From NCBI GenBank assembly GCA_963662265.2, contig CAXXHA010000003.1, forward strand, positions 61,942-125,941: a stretch of 64,000 nucleotides of DNA, written 5' to 3'. Positions 1 to 8,500 of this stretch are shown here, one piece after another. Source of the stretch: Spirochaetia bacterium. Lineage in GTDB: Bacteria; Spirochaetota; Spirochaetia; CADAEX01. The notes beneath the pieces are model-generated. The model saw only the letters and a program-made list of their open reading frames with translations, made no database searches and was not told the origin of the DNA. A program made the position numbers and the translations under genes. The stretch's first letter is position 1; every line of letters begins with the position of its first letter.

Positions 1-255
1 AAGCGGTCCCAGTTTTATCAGCGAGCCTGAATAGGTCATTACAAGAGCTCCTCTAGTCTCTGATGCGGAAAAAGAATCCGCAGGTTCAAGTTCATTTTCC
101 TCTATCTGTCTGTTGAAAACCTCATCTTTTTCAAGCCATCCGCCTGCCAGTATTTCAAGAGGATCTTCAGTGATGTCTGAAAGCTGTATATTGCCTGAAA
201 GCTGTTTCAGGTGGTTCTGGACTCTTTCCGATACCTTAGAAAAATTGTTTTCCAT
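1..255 (-). CDS. Uncharacterised protein (3'-truncated by the window edge), paralogue of the N-terminal domain of 663..1544
   Basis: Not in the ORF track. Manual translation from ATG at 255 (RBS GAGGGAG): MENNFSKVSERVQNHLKQLSG...LAGGWLEKDEVFNRQIEENELE...GALVMTYSGSLIKLGPL. This aligns with LAGIWNRKCTLFEQQINYLEME...AMIILTYSGSIISIGPL in 663..1544. Confidence 0.8.
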   Translation of the reverse strand, partial: MENNFSKVSERVQNHLKQLSGNIQLSDITEDPLEILAGGWLEKDEVFNRQIEENELEPADSFSASETRGALVMTYSGSLIKLGPL

Positions 256-332
256 TTTATTTCTCCCTCAGCAGATAATCTGCTTTTTTAAACTACCAAT
301 ACGGTTTAAAATGTAATTACATATTTTCTGTT

Positions 333-469
333 AAGCACATACTCCGGGGTATGTGCTTCTGATAGGAATGGATTGTATGTCGGGTCTGAGACTCAAAAAC
401 CATTCATATCCAAACCTTTCAATTTTTTTAAATTATGTTGCAAGCTACGGGATCAGACCCTCCTTGCGA
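333..469. ncRNA. Candidate structured RNA (three hairpins, two with complementary 8-nt loops)
   Basis: Hairpin at 333-358. Hairpin at 361-410 with loop GGGTCTGA (382-389). Hairpin at 438-469 with loop TCAGACCC (453-460). No known family recognised. Confidence 0.4.
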
Positions 470-662
470 ATAAATTAATTTATAACACAGATAATACACC
501 ATTTTCCAGAAATGTCCATAAAAATCGGTGAAATTTGAAAAAAATATGATATAATCATGAAAAACGGCTTGTTTCAGGTATTTTTTTACTGTTAAGGTAT
601 GTAAAATACATGAAAAGCCAGTTAAAAAAGACCTTGAAAAAGTCTTATACAGGAGTTGTAGT

Positions 663-1544
663 ATGCAGATTGAAAAGCTGCCTGAAGCAGTACAGGCACA
701 TCTTTTGCATTTAATCAGGAGTTCTGCCCTCCCTGATACTCCGGAATTCCGCTCCCGTCTTGCCGGAATCTGGAACAGGAAATGCACCTTGTTTGAACAG
801 CAGATAAATTATCTTGAAATGGAGCTTGTTGATAAAGTTGATACAAACGAATCAATGGCAATGATAATTCTCACATACTCAGGTTCTATAATAAGTATAG
901 GCCCTCTTAAGGAAACCAGGGATGTTGAATATGCGAGTATACACTTGAGGGCGGATGTTCCGAAATCAGTTGTCGTGACTGAGACAAATATCGACGGAGA
1001 GCTTCTCCGCGACAAGCCGGTATGTTTTAAAACAGGCGCAATAAAGAAGACTTCTCCCGCCTTTATGATAGCTGTTTGCGACAGTAATCTTGATCCCTCT
1101 GTTCAGTCTGAAAGAATCAGGGAAGCAATGATTTATCTTACAAACGGATTTCTCAAGATAAACCAGTCGATACATATTGACCGTAAGAGTGTGCCTGATC
1201 ATTTTACCGCGAAATCAATGGCAAGATATATTGCGAAAAGACATGACCTGACAGGTGCTGCTGTGCAGAATATTCTGGAAGATTTTTACTATCTTATTGA
1301 AACAGGAATGCTTCTCGGGGAAACTGTTCCGCTCGGCAAAATAGGACGGCTCTCGCTGAAGAAGAAAGAGGCCCAGAAAGCCAGAATAATAAGGCACCCT
1401 GAAACAGGAGAGGAGATTACTGTCAGGTCTAAGCCTTCAATGTATGTTCCCAGGATATCGTTCAGCAGCCATATAAAAGATAAGGCAGCTTCCCTTCCTG
1501 ATGACAGCAATTCAATAATCAGGATGGACTATGATGATGAATGA
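663..1544 (+). CDS. Uncharacterised N-terminal domain fused to a C-terminal HU/IHF-like DNA-binding domain
   Basis: 293 aa, RBS CAGGAG. The C-terminal segment AKSMARYIAKRHDL...GETVPLGKIGRLSLKKKEAQKARIIRHPETGEEITV...PRISFSSHIKD follows the HU/IHF pattern, including the 'R(N/H)PxTGE' arm. Confidence 0.8.
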   Translation: MQIEKLPEAVQAHLLHLIRSSALPDTPEFRSRLAGIWNRKCTLFEQQINYLEMELVDKVDTNESMAMIILTYSGSIISIGPLKETRDVEYASIHLRADVPKSVVVTETNIDGELLRDKPVCFKTGAIKKTSPAFMIAVCDSNLDPSVQSERIREAMIYLTNGFLKINQSIHIDRKSVPDHFTAKSMARYIAKRHDLTGAAVQNILEDFYYLIETGMLLGETVPLGKIGRLSLKKKEAQKARIIRHPETGEEITVRSKPSMYVPRISFSSHIKDKAASLPDDSNSIIRMDYDDE

Positions 1545-1841: not shown

Positions 1842-2360
1842 TTAAATAAACTCTGCAATTTCATCAAGCTGCTTTCTCTTTTTGTCACTTTTCTTTACAA
1901 ATCCTTTCGGTGTGTATCCGAGAGGTGTTATCACGAAAACCGTTTCCCCCTCTTCGAGTTCAAGCACTTTTTTAAGAATATCAGGATCGAATGCTGCAAT
2001 CCAGCATGTCCCTATCTCCTCGTTTTCCGCGGCAAGAATCATATGGTCCATGGCTATTGTAAGATCTGTTTCAAGCGAATTGTAATTATCATACCCTCTT
2101 GACCATGCCTCTGATCTCCTCCCTTTTACTATCAGTATGTGGGGTGCATCGTGAAACCACTCCCTGCTGTAGCATTGTCGCACCTTTGAAAGCATTTCTT
2201 CTGATGATACCACGACAAATTTCCACGGCTGCCTGTTTGCTGCCGATGGAGCTATTCTGCCGGCCTCAAGTATTTTCCTGATAATCTCTTCAGGTATTTT
2301 TCTCTCAGGATCATAACTCCTTATGCTTTCCCTTTCAGATATGACTTTGTAAAAATCCAT
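1842..2360 (-). CDS. Nitroreductase family protein
   Basis: Motifs RESIRSY, APSAANRQPWKF, MILAAENEEIGTCWI and PLGY. Confidence 0.92.
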   Translation of the reverse strand: MDFYKVISERESIRSYDPERKIPEEIIRKILEAGRIAPSAANRQPWKFVVVSSEEMLSKVRQCYSREWFHDAPHILIVKGRRSEAWSRGYDNYNSLETDLTIAMDHMILAAENEEIGTCWIAAFDPDILKKVLELEEGETVFVITPLGYTPKGFVKKSDKKRKQLDEIAEFI

Positions 2361-2801: not shown

Positions 2802-4379
2802 ATGAAAAGAATTGCTTTACTGCTTATTGTACTTATTGCAGTAACAGGCATGTTTATGTCCTGTTCGAAAAAAGCAGCCGAAAAAGAAGAAGTTGAATTT
2901 TTAGTATGGAACCAGTCTGAACCGCAGAGTCTTGACTGGCACCAGATCGAAGGTGTTCCTGAACACAGGATCTACTATTCACTTGGTGAAGGACTTGTAT
3001 CATCAAATCCTGAAACAGCAGAACCGGTACCCGGAGTTGCGGAAAGCTGGGATGTTGATGACACAGGACTTGTTTATACATTTCACTTAAGAAAAACTAC
3101 ATGGAGCGATGGTGAGCCTATAACAGCAAAGACATTTGTTGATTCATGGTTAAGAGTCCTCAATCCTGAAACTGCTGCACCTTATGCATGGTTTCCTGCT
3201 GATGTAATTGCAGGAGCTGCAGAATACAACAGCGGAGAAGCAGGACCTGAAGCTGTTAAAATCAGAGCTCTTGATGACTATACATTTCAGGTAGAACTTG
3301 TAGGTGCTATGCCTGCAATAGTAAGTGCATTCTCTCACTATGCATTTGCAATAGTTCCTATTCATGCTATTGAAAAGAACCCTGACAGCTGGACACAGCC
3401 TGAAAACTATGTTGGAAACGGACCTTTTGTACTTGAAGCATGGGAACCACAGGAAAAACTTTCTGTAGTTAAAAATGACAAGTACTGGGACAAGGAAAAT
3501 GTAAAACTCGACAGAGTTCTTTATATTCCTACAGATGATGACAATGTCGGATTCAACATGTATCTCAACAACGAAGTTGACTGGGCTCCTGAAGTACCAC
3601 TTGCTCAGCTTGAATCAGTTGTACTCAGAGATGACTATGTTGTAGCTCCATACCTTGGTGTTTACTACTATATTTTTCAGATGGAAAAAGAACCTCTTAC
3701 AGATGTAAGGGTAAGAAAAGCTCTTTCAATGGGTCTCGATAGAGATACTCTTGTCAAGAAAGTAACAGGCGCAGGCGAAACAGCTGCTTACAGCATGGTT
3801 CCCCCAATGGCTGGTTATACCCCAACTTCCGGTGTAAAGGGATCTATCGAAGATGCCAAAAAACTTCTTGCTGAAGCAGGATTCCCGGGCGGAAAAGGTT
3901 TTCCTGAAATTGAAATTCTCTATAACACAAGCGACAGACATCTGAAGATTGCAGAGTTTGTACAGGAACAGTGGGAAAAGAACCTTGGAATTAAATGTAC
4001 CCTTATAAATCAGGAATGGAAAACATACCTTGATACAAGAAAACAGGGTGAATTCATGGTTTCAAGAGCAGGCTGGATTGCTGACTATCCGGATCCAAGT
4101 TCTTTCCTTGAAATGTTCGGATCAGGCAAAGCTATGAACGGCGGAAAATATTCAAATAAAGTATTTGATGAAAACATGGAAGCTGCCGCAAGAATGGCTC
4201 CCGGACCTGAAAGATTTGCAAAACTCAGAAAAGCTGAAGATGTATTTATCACTGAAGATCATGGTGTAATGCCAATTTACCATTATGTTTCTCAGAGCAT
4301 GATTGATACAAATGTATGGGGCGGATGGTATCCCAATGCAATGGACTGGCATCCTACAAAATATATCTACAAAAAGTAG
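2802..4379 (+). CDS. oppA: Peptide ABC transporter substrate-binding lipoprotein
   Basis: Lipoprotein signal (FMSC); SBP family 5 motifs PGVAESW, YTFHLR..WSDGEPITA and GNGPF; first gene of a BCDF operon. Confidence 0.93.
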   Translation: MKRIALLLIVLIAVTGMFMSCSKKAAEKEEVEFLVWNQSEPQSLDWHQIEGVPEHRIYYSLGEGLVSSNPETAEPVPGVAESWDVDDTGLVYTFHLRKTTWSDGEPITAKTFVDSWLRVLNPETAAPYAWFPADVIAGAAEYNSGEAGPEAVKIRALDDYTFQVELVGAMPAIVSAFSHYAFAIVPIHAIEKNPDSWTQPENYVGNGPFVLEAWEPQEKLSVVKNDKYWDKENVKLDRVLYIPTDDDNVGFNMYLNNEVDWAPEVPLAQLESVVLRDDYVVAPYLGVYYYIFQMEKEPLTDVRVRKALSMGLDRDTLVKKVTGAGETAAYSMVPPMAGYTPTSGVKGSIEDAKKLLAEAGFPGGKGFPEIEILYNTSDRHLKIAEFVQEQWEKNLGIKCTLINQEWKTYLDTRKQGEFMVSRAGWIADYPDPSSFLEMFGSGKAMNGGKYSNKVFDENMEAAARMAPGPERFAKLRKAEDVFITEDHGVMPIYHYVSQSMIDTNVWGGWYPNAMDWHPTKYIYKK

Positions 4380-4408
4380 AGCCCTGTAGAGTTAATCAAT
4401 AAATAAAT

Positions 4409-4453
4409 ACAGGGGAGGCAGTTTTAATCAGATTGTTGATACTGTCTCCCTGT
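4409..4453 (+). terminator. Intercistronic hairpin after oppA (attenuator or mRNA stabiliser)
   Basis: ACAGGGGAGGCAG...CTGTCTCCCTGT imperfect inverted repeat followed by GTTTTCTTT. Confidence 0.5.
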
Positions 4454-4474
4454 GTTTTCTTTAAGAGGAATATA

Positions 4475-5404
4475 ATGACACGATATATCATAAGAAGATT
4501 TATTGGATTGTTTCCAACACTCCTTATCATTATAACAATATCATTTTTTATAATAAGAATAGCCCCGGGCGGACCTTTCGATGCAGAAAAAGCATTACCA
4601 AAACAGATAATGGAAAATATTGAGAAAAAGTATCATCTCGACGAACCGCTTATAAAACAGTATGCCAGATATATGATAAGTGTGATGAGGGGAGATCTTG
4701 GTCCTTCCTACAGGTACAAAGACCAGGATGTTAATTATTATATCGGAAAAAGTTTGCCAAATTCCCTGGTTCTGGGATCAATAGCAATGACACTGTCTCT
4801 GATTATGGGTATAACGGCCGGAATGATTTCTGCACTCAGGCAGAATACATGGGTTGATTACCTTGTCATGTCGATTGCTGTTATAGGAATAACCATTCCG
4901 CTTTTTGTAATAGGCCCTGTCCTTGTTTATATTTTTGCGATGAAACTTGGATGGCTACCGACGTCAGGGTGGATTACAGGAAGATTCGGATGGGTTACAA
5001 TTATTATGCCGGTTATTACTTTGTCTGCTGACAAATTTGCATATATTGCAAGGCTTTCAAGAGCAAGTATTCTTGAAATCCTCAGAAGTGATTATATCAG
5101 AACTGCAAAGGCCAAAGGGCTTAAAACATCAACAATTCTTGTTAAGCATGTCCTTAAAGGGGGGCTTCTCCCTGTGGTAAGTTATCTGGGGCCTGCTTTT
5201 TCTTCAGTACTCACAGGATCAATTGTTGTTGAGACTGTATTCCGTGTACCGGGACTTGGTAAGTTTTTTGTACAGTCAGCCCTTAACAGGGATTATACAC
5301 TAATACTCGGTACAGTTATCGTATATTCAGTAATACTCATAATCATGAATTTTATTGTAGATATTATTTATGCGTATCTGGATCCGAGAATTTCATATAA
5401 ATAG
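4475..5404 (+). CDS. oppB: Oligopeptide ABC transporter permease
   Basis: ATG 4475 after AAGAGG; motifs APGGPF, GDLGPSY, EAA-loop DYIRTAKAKGL and C-terminal LDPRI. Confidence 0.93.
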   Translation: MTRYIIRRFIGLFPTLLIIITISFFIIRIAPGGPFDAEKALPKQIMENIEKKYHLDEPLIKQYARYMISVMRGDLGPSYRYKDQDVNYYIGKSLPNSLVLGSIAMTLSLIMGITAGMISALRQNTWVDYLVMSIAVIGITIPLFVIGPVLVYIFAMKLGWLPTSGWITGRFGWVTIIMPVITLSADKFAYIARLSRASILEILRSDYIRTAKAKGLKTSTILVKHVLKGGLLPVVSYLGPAFSSVLTGSIVVETVFRVPGLGKFFVQSALNRDYTLILGTVIVYSVILIIMNFIVDIIYAYLDPRISYK

Positions 5405-5413
5405 GAATTAATT

Positions 5414-6497
5414 ATGTCTGCTGAAGAAAATAATAAAACAGCTTTGAATGAATTTGACCAGCCTGTGAAAGGGGTGAGCCTCTGGAACGATGCATGGAGA
5501 AGACTAAAGAAAAACAAGATGGCAATGTTCGGAATGTATGTTGTTATTTTTTATATTCTTATTTCTCTTTTTGCACCTGTTCTTCCTATATATTCATTCA
5601 AACACCAGATTATAGATCATCAGTTTCTCCCCCCCTTCATTAACCAAAAATGCGGGGCAGCTCTATTATGAGAGGACAGAGAAACAGATGAAGGCTCTTG
5701 CAAACAAGCAGAACAGGAAACTGAATGAAGAGGAGCTTGCAGAGCTTGAAGCGATCAAAGTCCAGATTGCTACTGAAACTGAGATTATAGATGGCAAAGA
5801 GGTCAAGATCCATGAGAGAAGGTATCTTTTCGGTACTGATTACCTGGGAAGAGACCTTCTTGCACGAGTCATATACGGAGGTCAGATTTCGATTGCTATC
5901 GGTTTTATCGGTACAATCACTTCTGTTCTGATCGGTATTGTTCTTGGCTCGATTGCCGGGTATGTAGGCGGGAAGGTTGATTATATAATAATGAGAATTG
6001 TCGATGTAATTTACGGGCTTCCATACATGATGCTTGTAATTATTTTTATGGCTATTTTCGGGAAAAATATTTTAAACCTCTTTCTTGCTCTTGCTATAGT
6101 AAGCTGGCTTACTGTTGCCCGTGTTGTAAGGGGACAGATAATGTCTCTCAAGAATTCCGAATTTGTGGAAGCTGCAAAGTGCGGAGGTGCGGGAACAATG
6201 CGGATTATATTCAAGCACCTGCTTCCAAATACACTTGGTGTAATTATAGTTTTTTCCACTTTGAGAATACCTACATTTATCATGCTTGAAGCATTTCTTT
6301 CTTTTCTGGGGCTCGGTATATCTGCTCCCCTTGCTTCCTGGGGTTCTCTTGTAGGACAGGCTGTTGACGGGATGAATCTCTATCCGTGGAGACTCTTTTT
6401 CCCTGCTGCGGCAATGACTCTTTTTCTTTTCGGGATGAACTTTCTGGGCGATGGACTCCGGGATGCGTTTGATCCGCAGGGAAAAAACAGATTCTAA
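5414..6497 (+). CDS. oppC: Oligopeptide ABC transporter permease (split by a probable indel)
   Basis: SLWNDAWRRLKKNKMA N-terminus, FGTDYLGRD, EFVEAAKCGGA and GDGLRDAFDP; the frame changes at the C7 run 5629-5635. Confidence 0.9.
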
Positions 6498-6513
6498 AGG
6501 AGCTTTTACATAG

Positions 6514-7515
6514 ATGAGTGATAATAGAGAAACAATACTTAGTGTTAGAAATCTAAAGACACACTTCAAAACAGATGACGGAATTGTAAAAGCGGTTGAC
6601 GGTGTCAGTTTTGAACTGAAAAAAGGGGAGACTCTCGGAGTTGTAGGAGAGTCCGGAAGTGGTAAATCTGTAACAAATCTTTCAATTATGAAGCTTATAC
6701 CATCTCCTCCAGGAAAAATTGTTGATGGTGAAGTTCTTTTCAACGGTGAAGATATACTGAAACTTGATGAATCTGGTATCAGAAATATCAGGGGAAACAG
6801 GATTTCTATGATATTTCAGGATCCGATGACAAGTCTGAACCCTTTCCTGAGAATATCAACCCAGCTGGTTGAAACAATTATACTTCATCAGAAAGTCGAT
6901 AAAACGGAAGCCCGGAAAAAAGCAATTGAAATGCTTGAACTTGTAGGTATTCCTGCGCCTGAAAAGCGTATTGACGCGTATCCGCACCAGTTTTCGGGCG
7001 GTATGAGACAGAGAGTTATGATTGCAATGGCATTAAGCTGTAACCCGGAACTTCTGATTGCAGATGAGCCGACAACAGCTCTTGATGTTACAATCCAGGC
7101 CCAGATTCTTGAGCTGATGAAAGAGCTTTCAGATAAACTCGGGACTGCAACAATTCTGATAACACATGACCTCGGGGTTGTTGCCGGAATGTGTGAAAAT
7201 ATCTGTGTAATGTATGCCGGAAGGGTAGTTGAAAAAGCAGATACTGACACGCTTTTTGCAAATCCCAAGCATCCATACACGATAGGGCTTATTAACTCTG
7301 TTCCCCGTCTTGATTTGGAGACCAGTGACCGGCTTTATTCGATTAAAGGCCAGCCGCCTAATCTTGTTGATATGCCGGAATGCTGTCCTTTCCATCCCAG
7401 GTGTGACAAGGCAATGGATATCTGCCGAAATAAATATCCCGAAACAATAAAAACAGATGATCATACCGAAGTAAGCTGCTGGCTTTACAGAAAGGAGGGG
7501 AATGATGGAGAATAA
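6514..7515 (+). CDS. oppD: Oligopeptide ABC transporter ATPase
   Basis: Walker A GESGSGKS, signature FSGGMRQR, Walker B LLIADEPT, C-terminal CPFHPRC. Confidence 0.95.
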   Translation: MSDNRETILSVRNLKTHFKTDDGIVKAVDGVSFELKKGETLGVVGESGSGKSVTNLSIMKLIPSPPGKIVDGEVLFNGEDILKLDESGIRNIRGNRISMIFQDPMTSLNPFLRISTQLVETIILHQKVDKTEARKKAIEMLELVGIPAPEKRIDAYPHQFSGGMRQRVMIAMALSCNPELLIADEPTTALDVTIQAQILELMKELSDKLGTATILITHDLGVVAGMCENICVMYAGRVVEKADTDTLFANPKHPYTIGLINSVPRLDLETSDRLYSIKGQPPNLVDMPECCPFHPRCDKAMDICRNKYPETIKTDDHTEVSCWLYRKEGNDGE

Positions 7516-8500
7516 AACACTGCTTGAAGTAAAAGATCTCAAGCTTCATTTCCCCATAGAAGAGGGACTTCTCTTCAAGAAACAGGTGGGAGCGATCCGG
7601 GCTGTAGACGGTATTGATTTTGCAGTACGTGAAGGGGAAACACTTGGTCTTGTAGGGGAGTCAGGATGTGGTAAATCCACTACTGCGCGGGCAATTGCAC
7701 AGCTTTACAAGGCAACATCCGGAGAAATAATATTCAATAACAAGAATCTTAATAATCTTTCCAGCCGGGAGCTTCTTGAAGAACGGAAAAACATCCAGAT
7801 GGTATTTCAGGATCCATATGCGTCCCTGAACCCGAGAATGACTGTAGGTGAAATAATATCTGAACCTCTTAAAGTCTATAAGAGCAGAGGGCTTATGGAT
7901 ATTACAAAAGAGGAAATTACCGACAGAATCGAGAATCTGATGGAGATCGTAGGCCTTTCGCACCTTTTTAAAAACAGGTATCCCCATGAATTTTCAGGGG
8001 GACAGAGACAGAGGATCGGAATTGCAAGGGCTCTTGCATTAAATCCGAAACTGATACTTGCCGATGAGCCTGTGAGTGCGCTTGACGTATCGATACAGTC
8101 GCAGATTCTGAATCTTTTTACAGATCTTCAGGAAAAATTCAACCTGACATATCTTTTTATTGCGCATGACCTTGCTGTAATTGAATATATCAGTACAAGG
8201 GTTGCAGTTATGTATCTTGGTAGAATTATGGAGATTTCTGATTCAAAGAAGCTTTATAAAAAGCCTCTCCATCCATATACCGAGGCGCTATTATCTGCAG
8301 CTCCGATTCCTGATCCTGTTGTAGAGAGAAAACGGAAAAGGGTTGTTCTTTCAGGCGATGTACCGTCTCCTGACAAGGAAAGACACTGCTGTTATTTCTA
8401 TGACAGATGTCCGAAAAGAATGCCGAAATGTGCGGAAAGTGTTCCTGTCCTTAAGGAAGTGGAAAAAGACCATCAGGTCGCATGCTTTCTGTATGACTGA
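7502..8500 (+). CDS. oppF: Oligopeptide ABC transporter ATPase
   Basis: GESGCGKS, FSGGQRQR, ADEPVSALD and HPYTEALL. Confidence 0.95.
   Translation: MMENKTLLEVKDLKLHFPIEEGLLFKKQVGAIRAVDGIDFAVREGETLGLVGESGCGKSTTARAIAQLYKATSGEIIFNNKNLNNLSSRELLEERKNIQMVFQDPYASLNPRMTVGEIISEPLKVYKSRGLMDITKEEITDRIENLMEIVGLSHLFKNRYPHEFSGGQRQRIGIARALALNPKLILADEPVSALDVSIQSQILNLFTDLQEKFNLTYLFIAHDLAVIEYISTRVAVMYLGRIMEISDSKKLYKKPLHPYTEALLSAAPIPDPVVERKRKRVVLSGDVPSPDKERHCCYFYDRCPKRMPKCAESVPVLKEVEKDHQVACFLYD

Follow-up and report, generated by a model that had tools for sequence, protein, structure and literature searches.

Relation to described systems

Proteins of the HU/IHF superfamily occur fused to other domains as well as free, and HU-HIG and bacterial HU-CCDC81 are known fusion clades (Burroughs et al. 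2017, main text of PMC5499826). We compare them here with a gene in a 64,000-nucleotide stretch of DNA from a Spirochaetia bacterium (contig CAXXHA010000003.1), which is called the window below. The gene encodes X-HU, in which a domain that we call X is joined to an HU/IHF-type domain, and it stands head-to-head with a gene for a second copy of X (free X), which heads an operon encoding a phosphatase, a Hanks Ser/Thr kinase, and two membrane proteins with FHA-like domains, one of which also has a vWA domain. X-HU is like HU-HIG and HU-CCDC81 in combining an HU fold with an added domain. It differs from both in that the addition is N-terminal, about 173 amino acids long, and without a match to any family, and in that no transmembrane (TM), LysM, SPOR, winged helix-turn-helix, or immunoglobulin part is present. 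HU-HIG genes are, in addition, reported without operonic links (main text of PMC5499826), whereas the X-HU gene is tied to a kinase operon. The X-HU architecture was not found in the excerpts of that text considered here, and the supplement may list it among spirochaete HU proteins. The first-pass annotation of the window had taken HU/IHF proteins to be normally stand-alone and about 90 amino acids long, a view that has to be corrected because such fusions were already known.

In Sulfolobus, a network acting on the archaellum consists of ArnA (FHA), ArnB (vWA), the kinase ArnC, and the phosphatase PP2A (excerpts of PMC6509490 and PMC7472852). A phospho-dependent complex of FHA and vWA proteins represses motility genes in that network. 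The same four domain types are found in the spirochaete module, namely, a Hanks kinase, a calcineurin-like phosphatase, FHA, and vWA with an adhesion site of the metal ion-dependent type (MIDAS), and the Arn network acts on gene expression. By analogy, the module may work most like the Arn network. It is not a member of it, because its FHA-like domains lack the binding residues, including the binding Arg, and its vWA domain sits on a membrane protein. In the spirochaetes, both the vWA and the FHA-like domains are carried by membrane proteins, with the vWA domain probably outside the membrane; all genes lie in one operon, and the X/X-HU pair is without an Arn counterpart.

Hanks kinases are also known to switch off DNA binding by HU, as with Pkn2 and HU alpha in Myxococcus and with HupB at Thr65 and Thr74 in Mycobacterium tuberculosis (excerpts of PMC6213207 and PMC6523023). 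Those cases and the one proposed here would have in common a membrane Ser/Thr kinase whose likely target is an HU protein, but there the target is an ordinary HU among many substrates, whereas here it would be a fused second HU paralogue genetically tied to one kinase. Neighborhoods of vWA, kinase, and PP2C genes with homotypic adaptor domains have been described, and the excerpts of PMC7159879 do not include the X/X-HU module among them. In the literature covered, which included few subscription papers, we found no description of a spirochaete X/X-HU kinase/phosphatase/FHA/vWA module.

The threonine phosphorylation pathway of type VI secretion systems is formed by PpkA, PppA, and Fha, and triads of vWA, PP2C, and kinase, such as TerY-P, form a further group. 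The spirochaete module resembles both in that a kinase and a phosphatase are clustered with FHA or vWA and in that a signal crosses the membrane. It differs in that its phosphatase belongs to the calcineurin-like family and not to the PP2C family, in that no secretion genes recur beside it, and in that its output gene is an HU fusion. The module is of a known kind of Ser/Thr signaling cluster, and what is new is the uncatalogued domain X together with the new HU architecture.

The X-HU fusion and its divergent paralogue

The X-HU gene (663..1544, plus strand) encodes 293 amino acids (P0002), of which residues ~1 to 173 form X (663..1181) and residues ~182 to 274 form the HU/IHF-superfamily domain (1206..1484), followed by an acidic tail. 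The minus-strand gene that the first-pass annotation had placed opposite, although the list of open reading frames (ORFs) did not contain it, is real. It starts with the ATG at position 255, behind the ribosome-binding site GGGAG, and its 5' half fills positions 1..255 (P0001). In the genome contig, it runs about 280 bases past the left edge of the window, and the whole gene (L001:11722-12255, equal to G000:C3:61663-62196) was recovered in the way that the annotation had recommended. As the full gene encodes just 177 amino acids, free X is domain X alone, with no extra C-terminal domain. The homology claimed between the minus-strand product and the N-terminal part of X-HU is borne out by BLASTP, with 57 of 168 residues identical (34%; E 2e-29). 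Free X and X-HU are the only two X copies in the genome.

The fusion is not an assembly error. Two runs of a single sample, from which this DNA possibly comes, gave contigs that cover positions 1 to 1600 with zero differences, and a contig from another study covers positions 468 to 1600 with one inserted base at position 537, which is intergenic, and no indel in the X-HU gene. An origin of the fusion by an assembly indel was rejected on the basis of these contigs and of 65 X-HU fusion ORFs in loci L001 to L081. In the contig from the other study, 17 of the 18 listed coding differences are synonymous, as expected of a gene under purifying selection.

The HU/IHF-type domain that had been read at the C terminus of the plus-strand copy is well supported. 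Pfam PF00216 matches residues 182 to 274 with 43.5 bits (cut-off, 22.4; E 3.8e-11), and in Foldseek, an AlphaFold model of the fusion aligns with HU/IHF chains over about 95 columns, the best being 1p71_A (E 1.3e-5; TM-score by target, 0.76). The model gave 28 matches at E <= 0.001, and those listed are HU/IHF-like; its secondary structure, with two helices, a sheet with an extended beta-arm, and a last helix, fits HU. R241, T248, G225, and G228 are invariant in an alignment of 74 X-HU proteins, 58 of which have the arm-tip Pro246. T248 is presumably the counterpart of HupB Thr65. The clasp has a mean of 8.1 Lys and Arg residues (range, 6 to 10; n = 74), equal to the 8.1 given for the classical HU/IHF clasp (main text of PMC5499826), although the segment limits may differ, and the arm-tip Pro and Thr are kept as well. 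Members of the superfamily bind and bend DNA as obligate dimers. Because the HU part retains the classical basic clasp and arm tip, X-HU is likely to bind DNA.

X-HU is nevertheless distinct from each described clade. At 293 amino acids, it is a fusion and not one of the stand-alone proteins of about 90 amino acids that make up the classical HU/IHF clades. The GXG (GFG) turn before the arm is absent, the GFG of IHF aligning to K-I-G, and the family reads G-[RK]-[LI]-G at this place. The HU-HIG family PF18291 scores 22.0 bits against a cut-off of 26.2, and only a short acidic tail follows HU in place of the C-terminal winged helix-turn-helix, immunoglobulin, or Gly-rich part of that clade. Bacterial HU-CCDC81, with its short, weakly basic clasp and a C-terminal transmembrane segment with LysM or SPOR, is set apart by the full basic clasp and by the lack of a transmembrane segment in X-HU. 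One other HU-family gene was found in the genome, a stand-alone one on contig C36, and the best score of the fused HU is to a stand-alone HU type of spirochaetes. Proteins of that type (L152 and L154 to L163) often have a basic N-terminal tail, and in three genomes, their gene lies no more than ~4 kb from the end of the operon.

The operon headed by free X

Recovery of the whole free X gene also revealed an operon outside the window, in which free X is the first of five closely packed minus-strand genes, so that the layout reads X-HU <- -> X, phosphatase, kinase, TM-FHA, vWA-TM-FHA. The genes that follow free X on the minus strand encode a calcineurin-like metallophosphoesterase of 340 amino acids (L001:10690-11712), a Hanks Ser/Thr kinase with one transmembrane helix and 556 amino acids from its first possible start (L001:9105-10775), a multi-pass membrane protein of 295 amino acids with a C-terminal FHA-like domain (TM-FHA; L001:8202-9089), and a vWA-TM-FHA-like protein of 470 amino acids (L001:6779-8191). 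The kinase motifs are kept, with the Lys in 59 of 60 sequences, the HR of HRD in 59 of 60, and the DF of DFG in 60 of 60, and the metal ligands of the phosphatase (DxH, GD, GNHE, H, and GH) are invariant (n = 36). Going by these intact motifs, both enzymes are predicted to be active. The operon kinase is the sole kinase above the Pfam cut-off in the genome. When the phosphatase was compared with the PDB, all 40 sequence matches at E <= 0.01 were PPP-type protein phosphatases or a chain aligned to the same stretch.

The vWA domain retains its MIDAS residues D101, S103, S105, and T179 in 42 of 42 sequences. The FHA-like domains are different in this respect, as the phosphothreonine-binding Arg is present in 1 of 47 TM-FHA and 1 of 42 vWA-FHA proteins and the binding Ser in 4 of 47 and 2 of 42, respectively. 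A canonical FHA domain was not found at E <= 0.001 in the genome (90.6% complete). Since the membrane FHA-like domains lack Arg and Ser and no canonical FHA was found, we infer that a phosphothreonine reader other than FHA, or none, would be used here. The vWA and FHA domains likely lie on opposite sides of the membrane, with vWA probably outside. TM-FHA and vWA-FHA form a single gene in 8 loci, and 12 of 81 loci have a canonical small FHA gene in the vicinity of X.

PADLOC matched the kinase alone, through its kinase domain, with none for the phosphatase or the vWA protein. No nucleotide cyclase or similar gene recurs across the loci, no secretion genes recur beside the module, and the flanking genes are mostly not common to different loci. 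A variant is present in two genomes (G010 and G025; loci L109, L110, L166, and L167), where a zinc-ribbon-FHA gene, presumably of ArnA-like architecture, precedes X and where an extra kinase-FHA gene and a second vWA gene follow the operon. A reduced operon without X, which reads small FHA-phosphatase-kinase, is found at L183 to L185, L189 to L192, and L194 (family f2), and at several of these loci, a gene called by eye from the N terminus of its product as an apparent Lon-type protease follows the kinase.

Distribution among spirochaetes

The arrangement was followed in two sets of genomes, one consisting of the best 80 by similarity to the query among 143 relatives from a scan of GTDB genomes (79 of the 80 titled as spirochaetes) and the other of 401 evenly drawn Spirochaetota genomes. 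The genomes are related and not independent, and the co-occurrence counts are descriptive. In the first set, 78 of the 80 loci have the phosphatase after free X, and 77 have the kinase there, the three without the kinase being at contig ends. An intact X-HU gene stands head-to-head with free X in 63 of the 80, so that the divergent layout and the fusion, whose conservation the first-pass annotation had wished to see checked, are indeed retained. In the other loci, the second X is head-to-head and cut or truncated (4 of 80), X-HU sits at the far end of the operon in convergent orientation (1 of 80), X-HU was not in the fetched DNA (11 of 80), or the contig ends (1 of 80).

X was found in 61 of the 401 genomes, 53 with close clades and 8 with a distant clade only, and was not found in whole families of those sampled. 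All 50 genomes with a strong TM-FHA match are among the 53 close-clade genomes (one weak partial match being excluded), and 35 of these 50 have X-HU, one of them in part. The phosphatase family is present in 87 of the 401 genomes, among which are 56 of the 61 X genomes. The 40 loci fetched from this sample include ones with X-HU head-to-head, ones with it convergent, and ones with it unlinked. Over both sets, the convergent layout at the far end of the operon is seen in L060, L117, L127, L128, and L129. Where the phosphatase has been lost, X abuts the kinase (L129, L130, and L133 in the 40-locus sample; L039 and L047).

Free X is, then, more faithful to the kinase operon than to X-HU. The first-pass annotation had described a two-gene module, and this description is upheld in part, since the pair is co-conserved and so is the HU fusion; the pair is not self-contained, because free X heads the kinase/phosphatase/FHA/vWA operon and X-HU may be at the other end of the operon, unlinked, or not found. 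Neither a characterized family nor a lack of co-conservation nor an assembly indel, the three grounds that the annotation had named for abandoning its view, was encountered. Named protein matches are to spirochaetes, with the exception of one short contig labeled Gammaproteobacteria, and Breznakiella homolactica and Salinispira pacifica are cultured carriers. No relatives of X were present in phage, plasmid, or viral-contig collections.

Domain X

The first-pass annotation did not recognize the shared domain, and no described family in Pfam, NCBIfam, PHROGs, or PADLOC explains the fusion. Free X has no match in any of the four, and across 108 X members, no family was hit in more than two at E <= 0.1. 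The model of free X is confident (predicted local distance difference test, pLDDT, 88.4) and consists of eight strands together with two short helices and two long ones, one of the latter at the C terminus. Fold searches, with the N-terminal region of NucS among the candidates, yielded no firm assignment. In a quick maximum-likelihood tree built from 135 X domains, which were left of 222 after those at least 70% identical had been removed, all 51 HU-fused X domains form one group (SH-aLRT, 98) apart from the free copies. Three rows labeled as solo X fall inside the HU clade, of which two are X-HU genes cut by contig ends and one is a long branch. Corresponding subgroups recur in the two clades (L001 groups with L004, and L034 with L053, in both of them, for example), and for this reason the duplication of X is taken to be old and both copies to have been mostly coinherited.

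Eleven residues (W40, K43, F47, T74, G77, S78, R90, Y94, R100, S135, and F167) are 92 to 100% conserved in all four X clades, and the invariance of so many polar residues suggests an anion-binding or catalytic site. Mean-field covariation, at an effective depth of 168 that is too shallow to define the fold, places T74-R90 and Y94-R100 in the top 50 pairs. Free X ends in a tail of the form N-K-T-[IL]-[IV], the Thr column of which is occupied by Thr in 108 of 113 sequences. Among 79 free X proteins, 71 have the motif [DEKNQ]-T-[IVLM]-[IVLMY] within their final 12 residues, versus 34 of 2311 ORFs of the genome; these 79 are homologues, and the count shows conservation and not independent cases. 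The idea that the Thr motif recurs throughout the module was rejected, as it is carried by 5 of 61 X-HU tails, 1 of 42 vWA-FHA, 0 of 47 TM-FHA, 0 of 60 kinase, and 0 of 73 phosphatase proteins. D-x-T-hydrophobic opens each of the 8 small FHA proteins encoded at the head of phosphatase-kinase operons without X, which hints at the preferred site of the kinase. GarA and OdhI are self-binding switches, of which the N-terminal D-x-T-I motif of these small FHA proteins is reminiscent.

The two X copies also differ in charge, with a mean net charge of -18.8 for free X versus -5.0 for the X of X-HU and of -3.1 versus +2.5 for the last helix. In X-HU, this basic helix has the clade-specific residues R155, R157, I161, and T164 (free-X numbering), and it might either pair with free X or pack against the HU part of its own chain. 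Last helices of opposite charge would fit a hetero-oligomer of X and X-HU, such as the first-pass annotation had envisaged.

Fusions of X extend beyond HU. In some genomes, X is joined to a second uncatalogued helical domain of about 120 amino acids (P0085, P0100, P0104, P0109, P0111, P0119, P0136, and P0142; loci L098, L107, L119, L122, and L124), which has no Pfam match and has conserved Trp/Phe-rich motifs. P0127 (701 amino acids) joins a vWA-TM part to X and to this domain, and P0096 joins X to DUF2442. A search through 7,993 candidates turned up no X fusions of greater length, a weak negative in view of the existence of P0127.

The distant X clade lies away from kinase genes, and in two loci, a stand-alone HU gene directly follows X (L096:8104-10026 in G044 and L104:5927-6790 in G168). 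Of the distant-X genomes tested, 5 of 5 hold the same kinase family, in 4 of them with an adjoining phosphatase. L096 also encodes an HU-TM protein with a LysM-like tail, recognized by eye and by phage-family matches, and its layout resembles a two-gene HU arrangement that has been proposed for nucleoid tethering (main text of PMC5499826).

A possible role for X and alternative explanations

We propose that X is a kinase-controlled adaptor through which the operon switches the binding of X-HU to DNA, and we put the probability of this proposal at roughly 45%. Its observed basis is gene order, co-occurrence, and motifs, from which we infer the binding and catalytic steps. With the TM-FHA and vWA-TM-FHA proteins as its scaffold, the kinase would sense a cue outside the inner membrane and would phosphorylate free X at Thr173 of the N-K-T-[IL]-[IV] tail, and possibly X-HU too. 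The phosphorylation state could then set the binding of the acidic free X to the X domain of HU-dimerized X-HU, with contact through the invariant basic/hydroxyl patch or through the oppositely charged last helices. This association would change where, or how tightly, X-HU bends DNA, and the phosphatase would reset the phosphorylation state. The proposal draws on the linkage of X to the phosphatase and kinase, on X abutting the kinase after loss of the phosphatase, and on X-HU rejoining the operon at its far end; the vWA-TM-X fusion P0127, the stand-alone HU genes after distant X, and the kinase family in distant-X genomes point in the same direction. The conserved Thr motif, the invariant X residues, the loss of the FHA Arg, and the opposite helix charges would be consistent with it, as would, by analogy, the control of HU by Hanks kinases elsewhere.

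Several observations weigh against the adaptor proposal. X nearly always accompanies the phosphatase and kinase, yet the enzymes do not need X, because phosphatase (and kinase) loci persist where X was not found: the first profile gave no X in 31 phosphatase genomes and a wider profile found it in 1 of these 31, leaving 30, and 8 of 12 fetched X-less loci read small FHA-phosphatase-kinase. Fifteen of the 50 TM-FHA genomes, including the near-complete G139 and G060, gave no X-HU, and some X domains are fused to the ~120-amino-acid domain and not to HU. Thr173 is not kept at its column in the distant or Y-fused clades, and in the model of free X, it ends a predicted helix. Pairwise identities across 42 loci give no signal specific to the pair, since the correlation of free X with the X of X-HU (rho 0.48) is no better than that with the phosphatase (0.55) or the kinase (0.53). 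PPP enzymes carry GDxxDRG where the phosphatase has GDxxHxE, and its profile matches the PDB weakly (best E 0.0012), so that a protein is no more than its putative substrate. Finally, the 80 relatives were kept for their similarity to the query and form a biased set.

If X is such an adaptor, the locus would connect a membrane kinase with a protein that bends the chromosome in one complete and genetically compact pathway, with a new HU architecture and an uncatalogued, confidently modeled domain bearing an invariant polar set. The module is directly testable, as X and X-HU are small and soluble and cultured carriers exist. A bolder and unlikely version is that X represents a new fold, without relation to FHA, that reads phosphothreonine in place of the two disabled FHA domains of the operon, and that X-HU is the dedicated output of a single trans-envelope kinase. 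An outside signal would in that case remodel chromosome architecture directly, without a classical transcription factor.

Free X could instead be a phosphorylation-independent partner of X-HU, or an acidic DNA mimic that sequesters it, with the kinase operon merely coregulating the two. Its strongly acidic character (-18.8 versus -5.0), the common head-to-head layout (63 of 80 loci), and the age of two paralogue clades kept side by side would suit such a role, but we consider it improbable, given that free X stays with the kinase where X-HU is unlinked or not found, that the invariant polar set is common to all X clades, including those without an HU fusion, and that the X/X-HU distance correlation is not pair-specific. 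The polar residues K43, T74, S/N76, G77, S78, R90, Y94, R100, and S135 would suit an anion-binding or catalytic site, and it is conceivable, though just as improbable, that X binds or converts a small molecule (for example, a nucleotide) on which the phosphoesterase acts and which controls X-HU. The deviation of the phosphatase from GDxxDRG would agree with such a ligand. In other systems, nucleotides are the predicted substrates of calcineurin-like domains (excerpts of PMC7159879), but here the phosphoesterase adjoins a Ser/Thr kinase even where X was not found, its PDB matches at E <= 0.01 are all PPP-type or a chain on the same stretch, and the loci show no recurrent gene for a nucleotide cyclase or the like.

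The module might also be structural, with membrane proteins anchoring X, X-HU tethering the chromosome to the envelope, and phosphorylation timing the assembly. FHA-like domains without the binding Arg would fit a scaffold, as would the fusion of TM-FHA and vWA-FHA in 8 loci and the vWA-TM-X fusion P0127, and the gene order at L096, where X comes before HU and the HU-TM protein that has the LysM-like tail, is a layout proposed for tethering (main text of PMC5499826). Such a function is quite improbable, given that X was found in just 61 of the 401 Spirochaetota genomes and in none of those sampled from whole families, the more so as X-HU was not found in 15 of 50 carriers. A conflict system directed at phages or competitors, with X as a homotypic adaptor for interchangeable effectors, seems highly improbable. 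The fusion of X to HU, the helical domain, DUF2442, and vWA-TM recalls effector-associated domains (excerpts of PMC7159879), and the distribution is patchy, but the X domains of X-HU form one clade (SH-aLRT 98 in the quick tree) whose subgroups are those that vertical descent would give. In addition, PADLOC matches the kinase alone, through its kinase domain, the phage, plasmid, and viral collections gave no match, and the flanking genes are mostly not common to the loci.

The divergent spacer and neighboring features

The spacer between the free X and X-HU genes (256..662) measures 407 bp here, compared with a median of 119.5 bp in 62 relatives. It contains a repeated element of about 130 bp at positions ~345 to 475, of which the genome has six diverged copies longer than 100 bp elsewhere, one of them on the same contig, at 72 to 77% identity; a related strain lacks positions 330 to 467 of the spacer. 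Judged by these features, the element looks like a small mobile insertion that would account for part of the unusual spacer length. Promoter-like sites numbered 8 versus 5.1 expected (sd 2.4), which is not clearly beyond chance.

On the other side of the X-HU gene lie a nitroreductase gene (1842-2360, minus strand) and an operon for an oligopeptide-type ABC transporter (2802-8500, plus strand), neither of which is a conserved neighbor of the module. Between them, at positions 2409 to 2583, is a second and more abundant intergenic repeat of about 170 bp, with ~30 BLASTN matches on ~18 other contigs at 70 to 97% identity.

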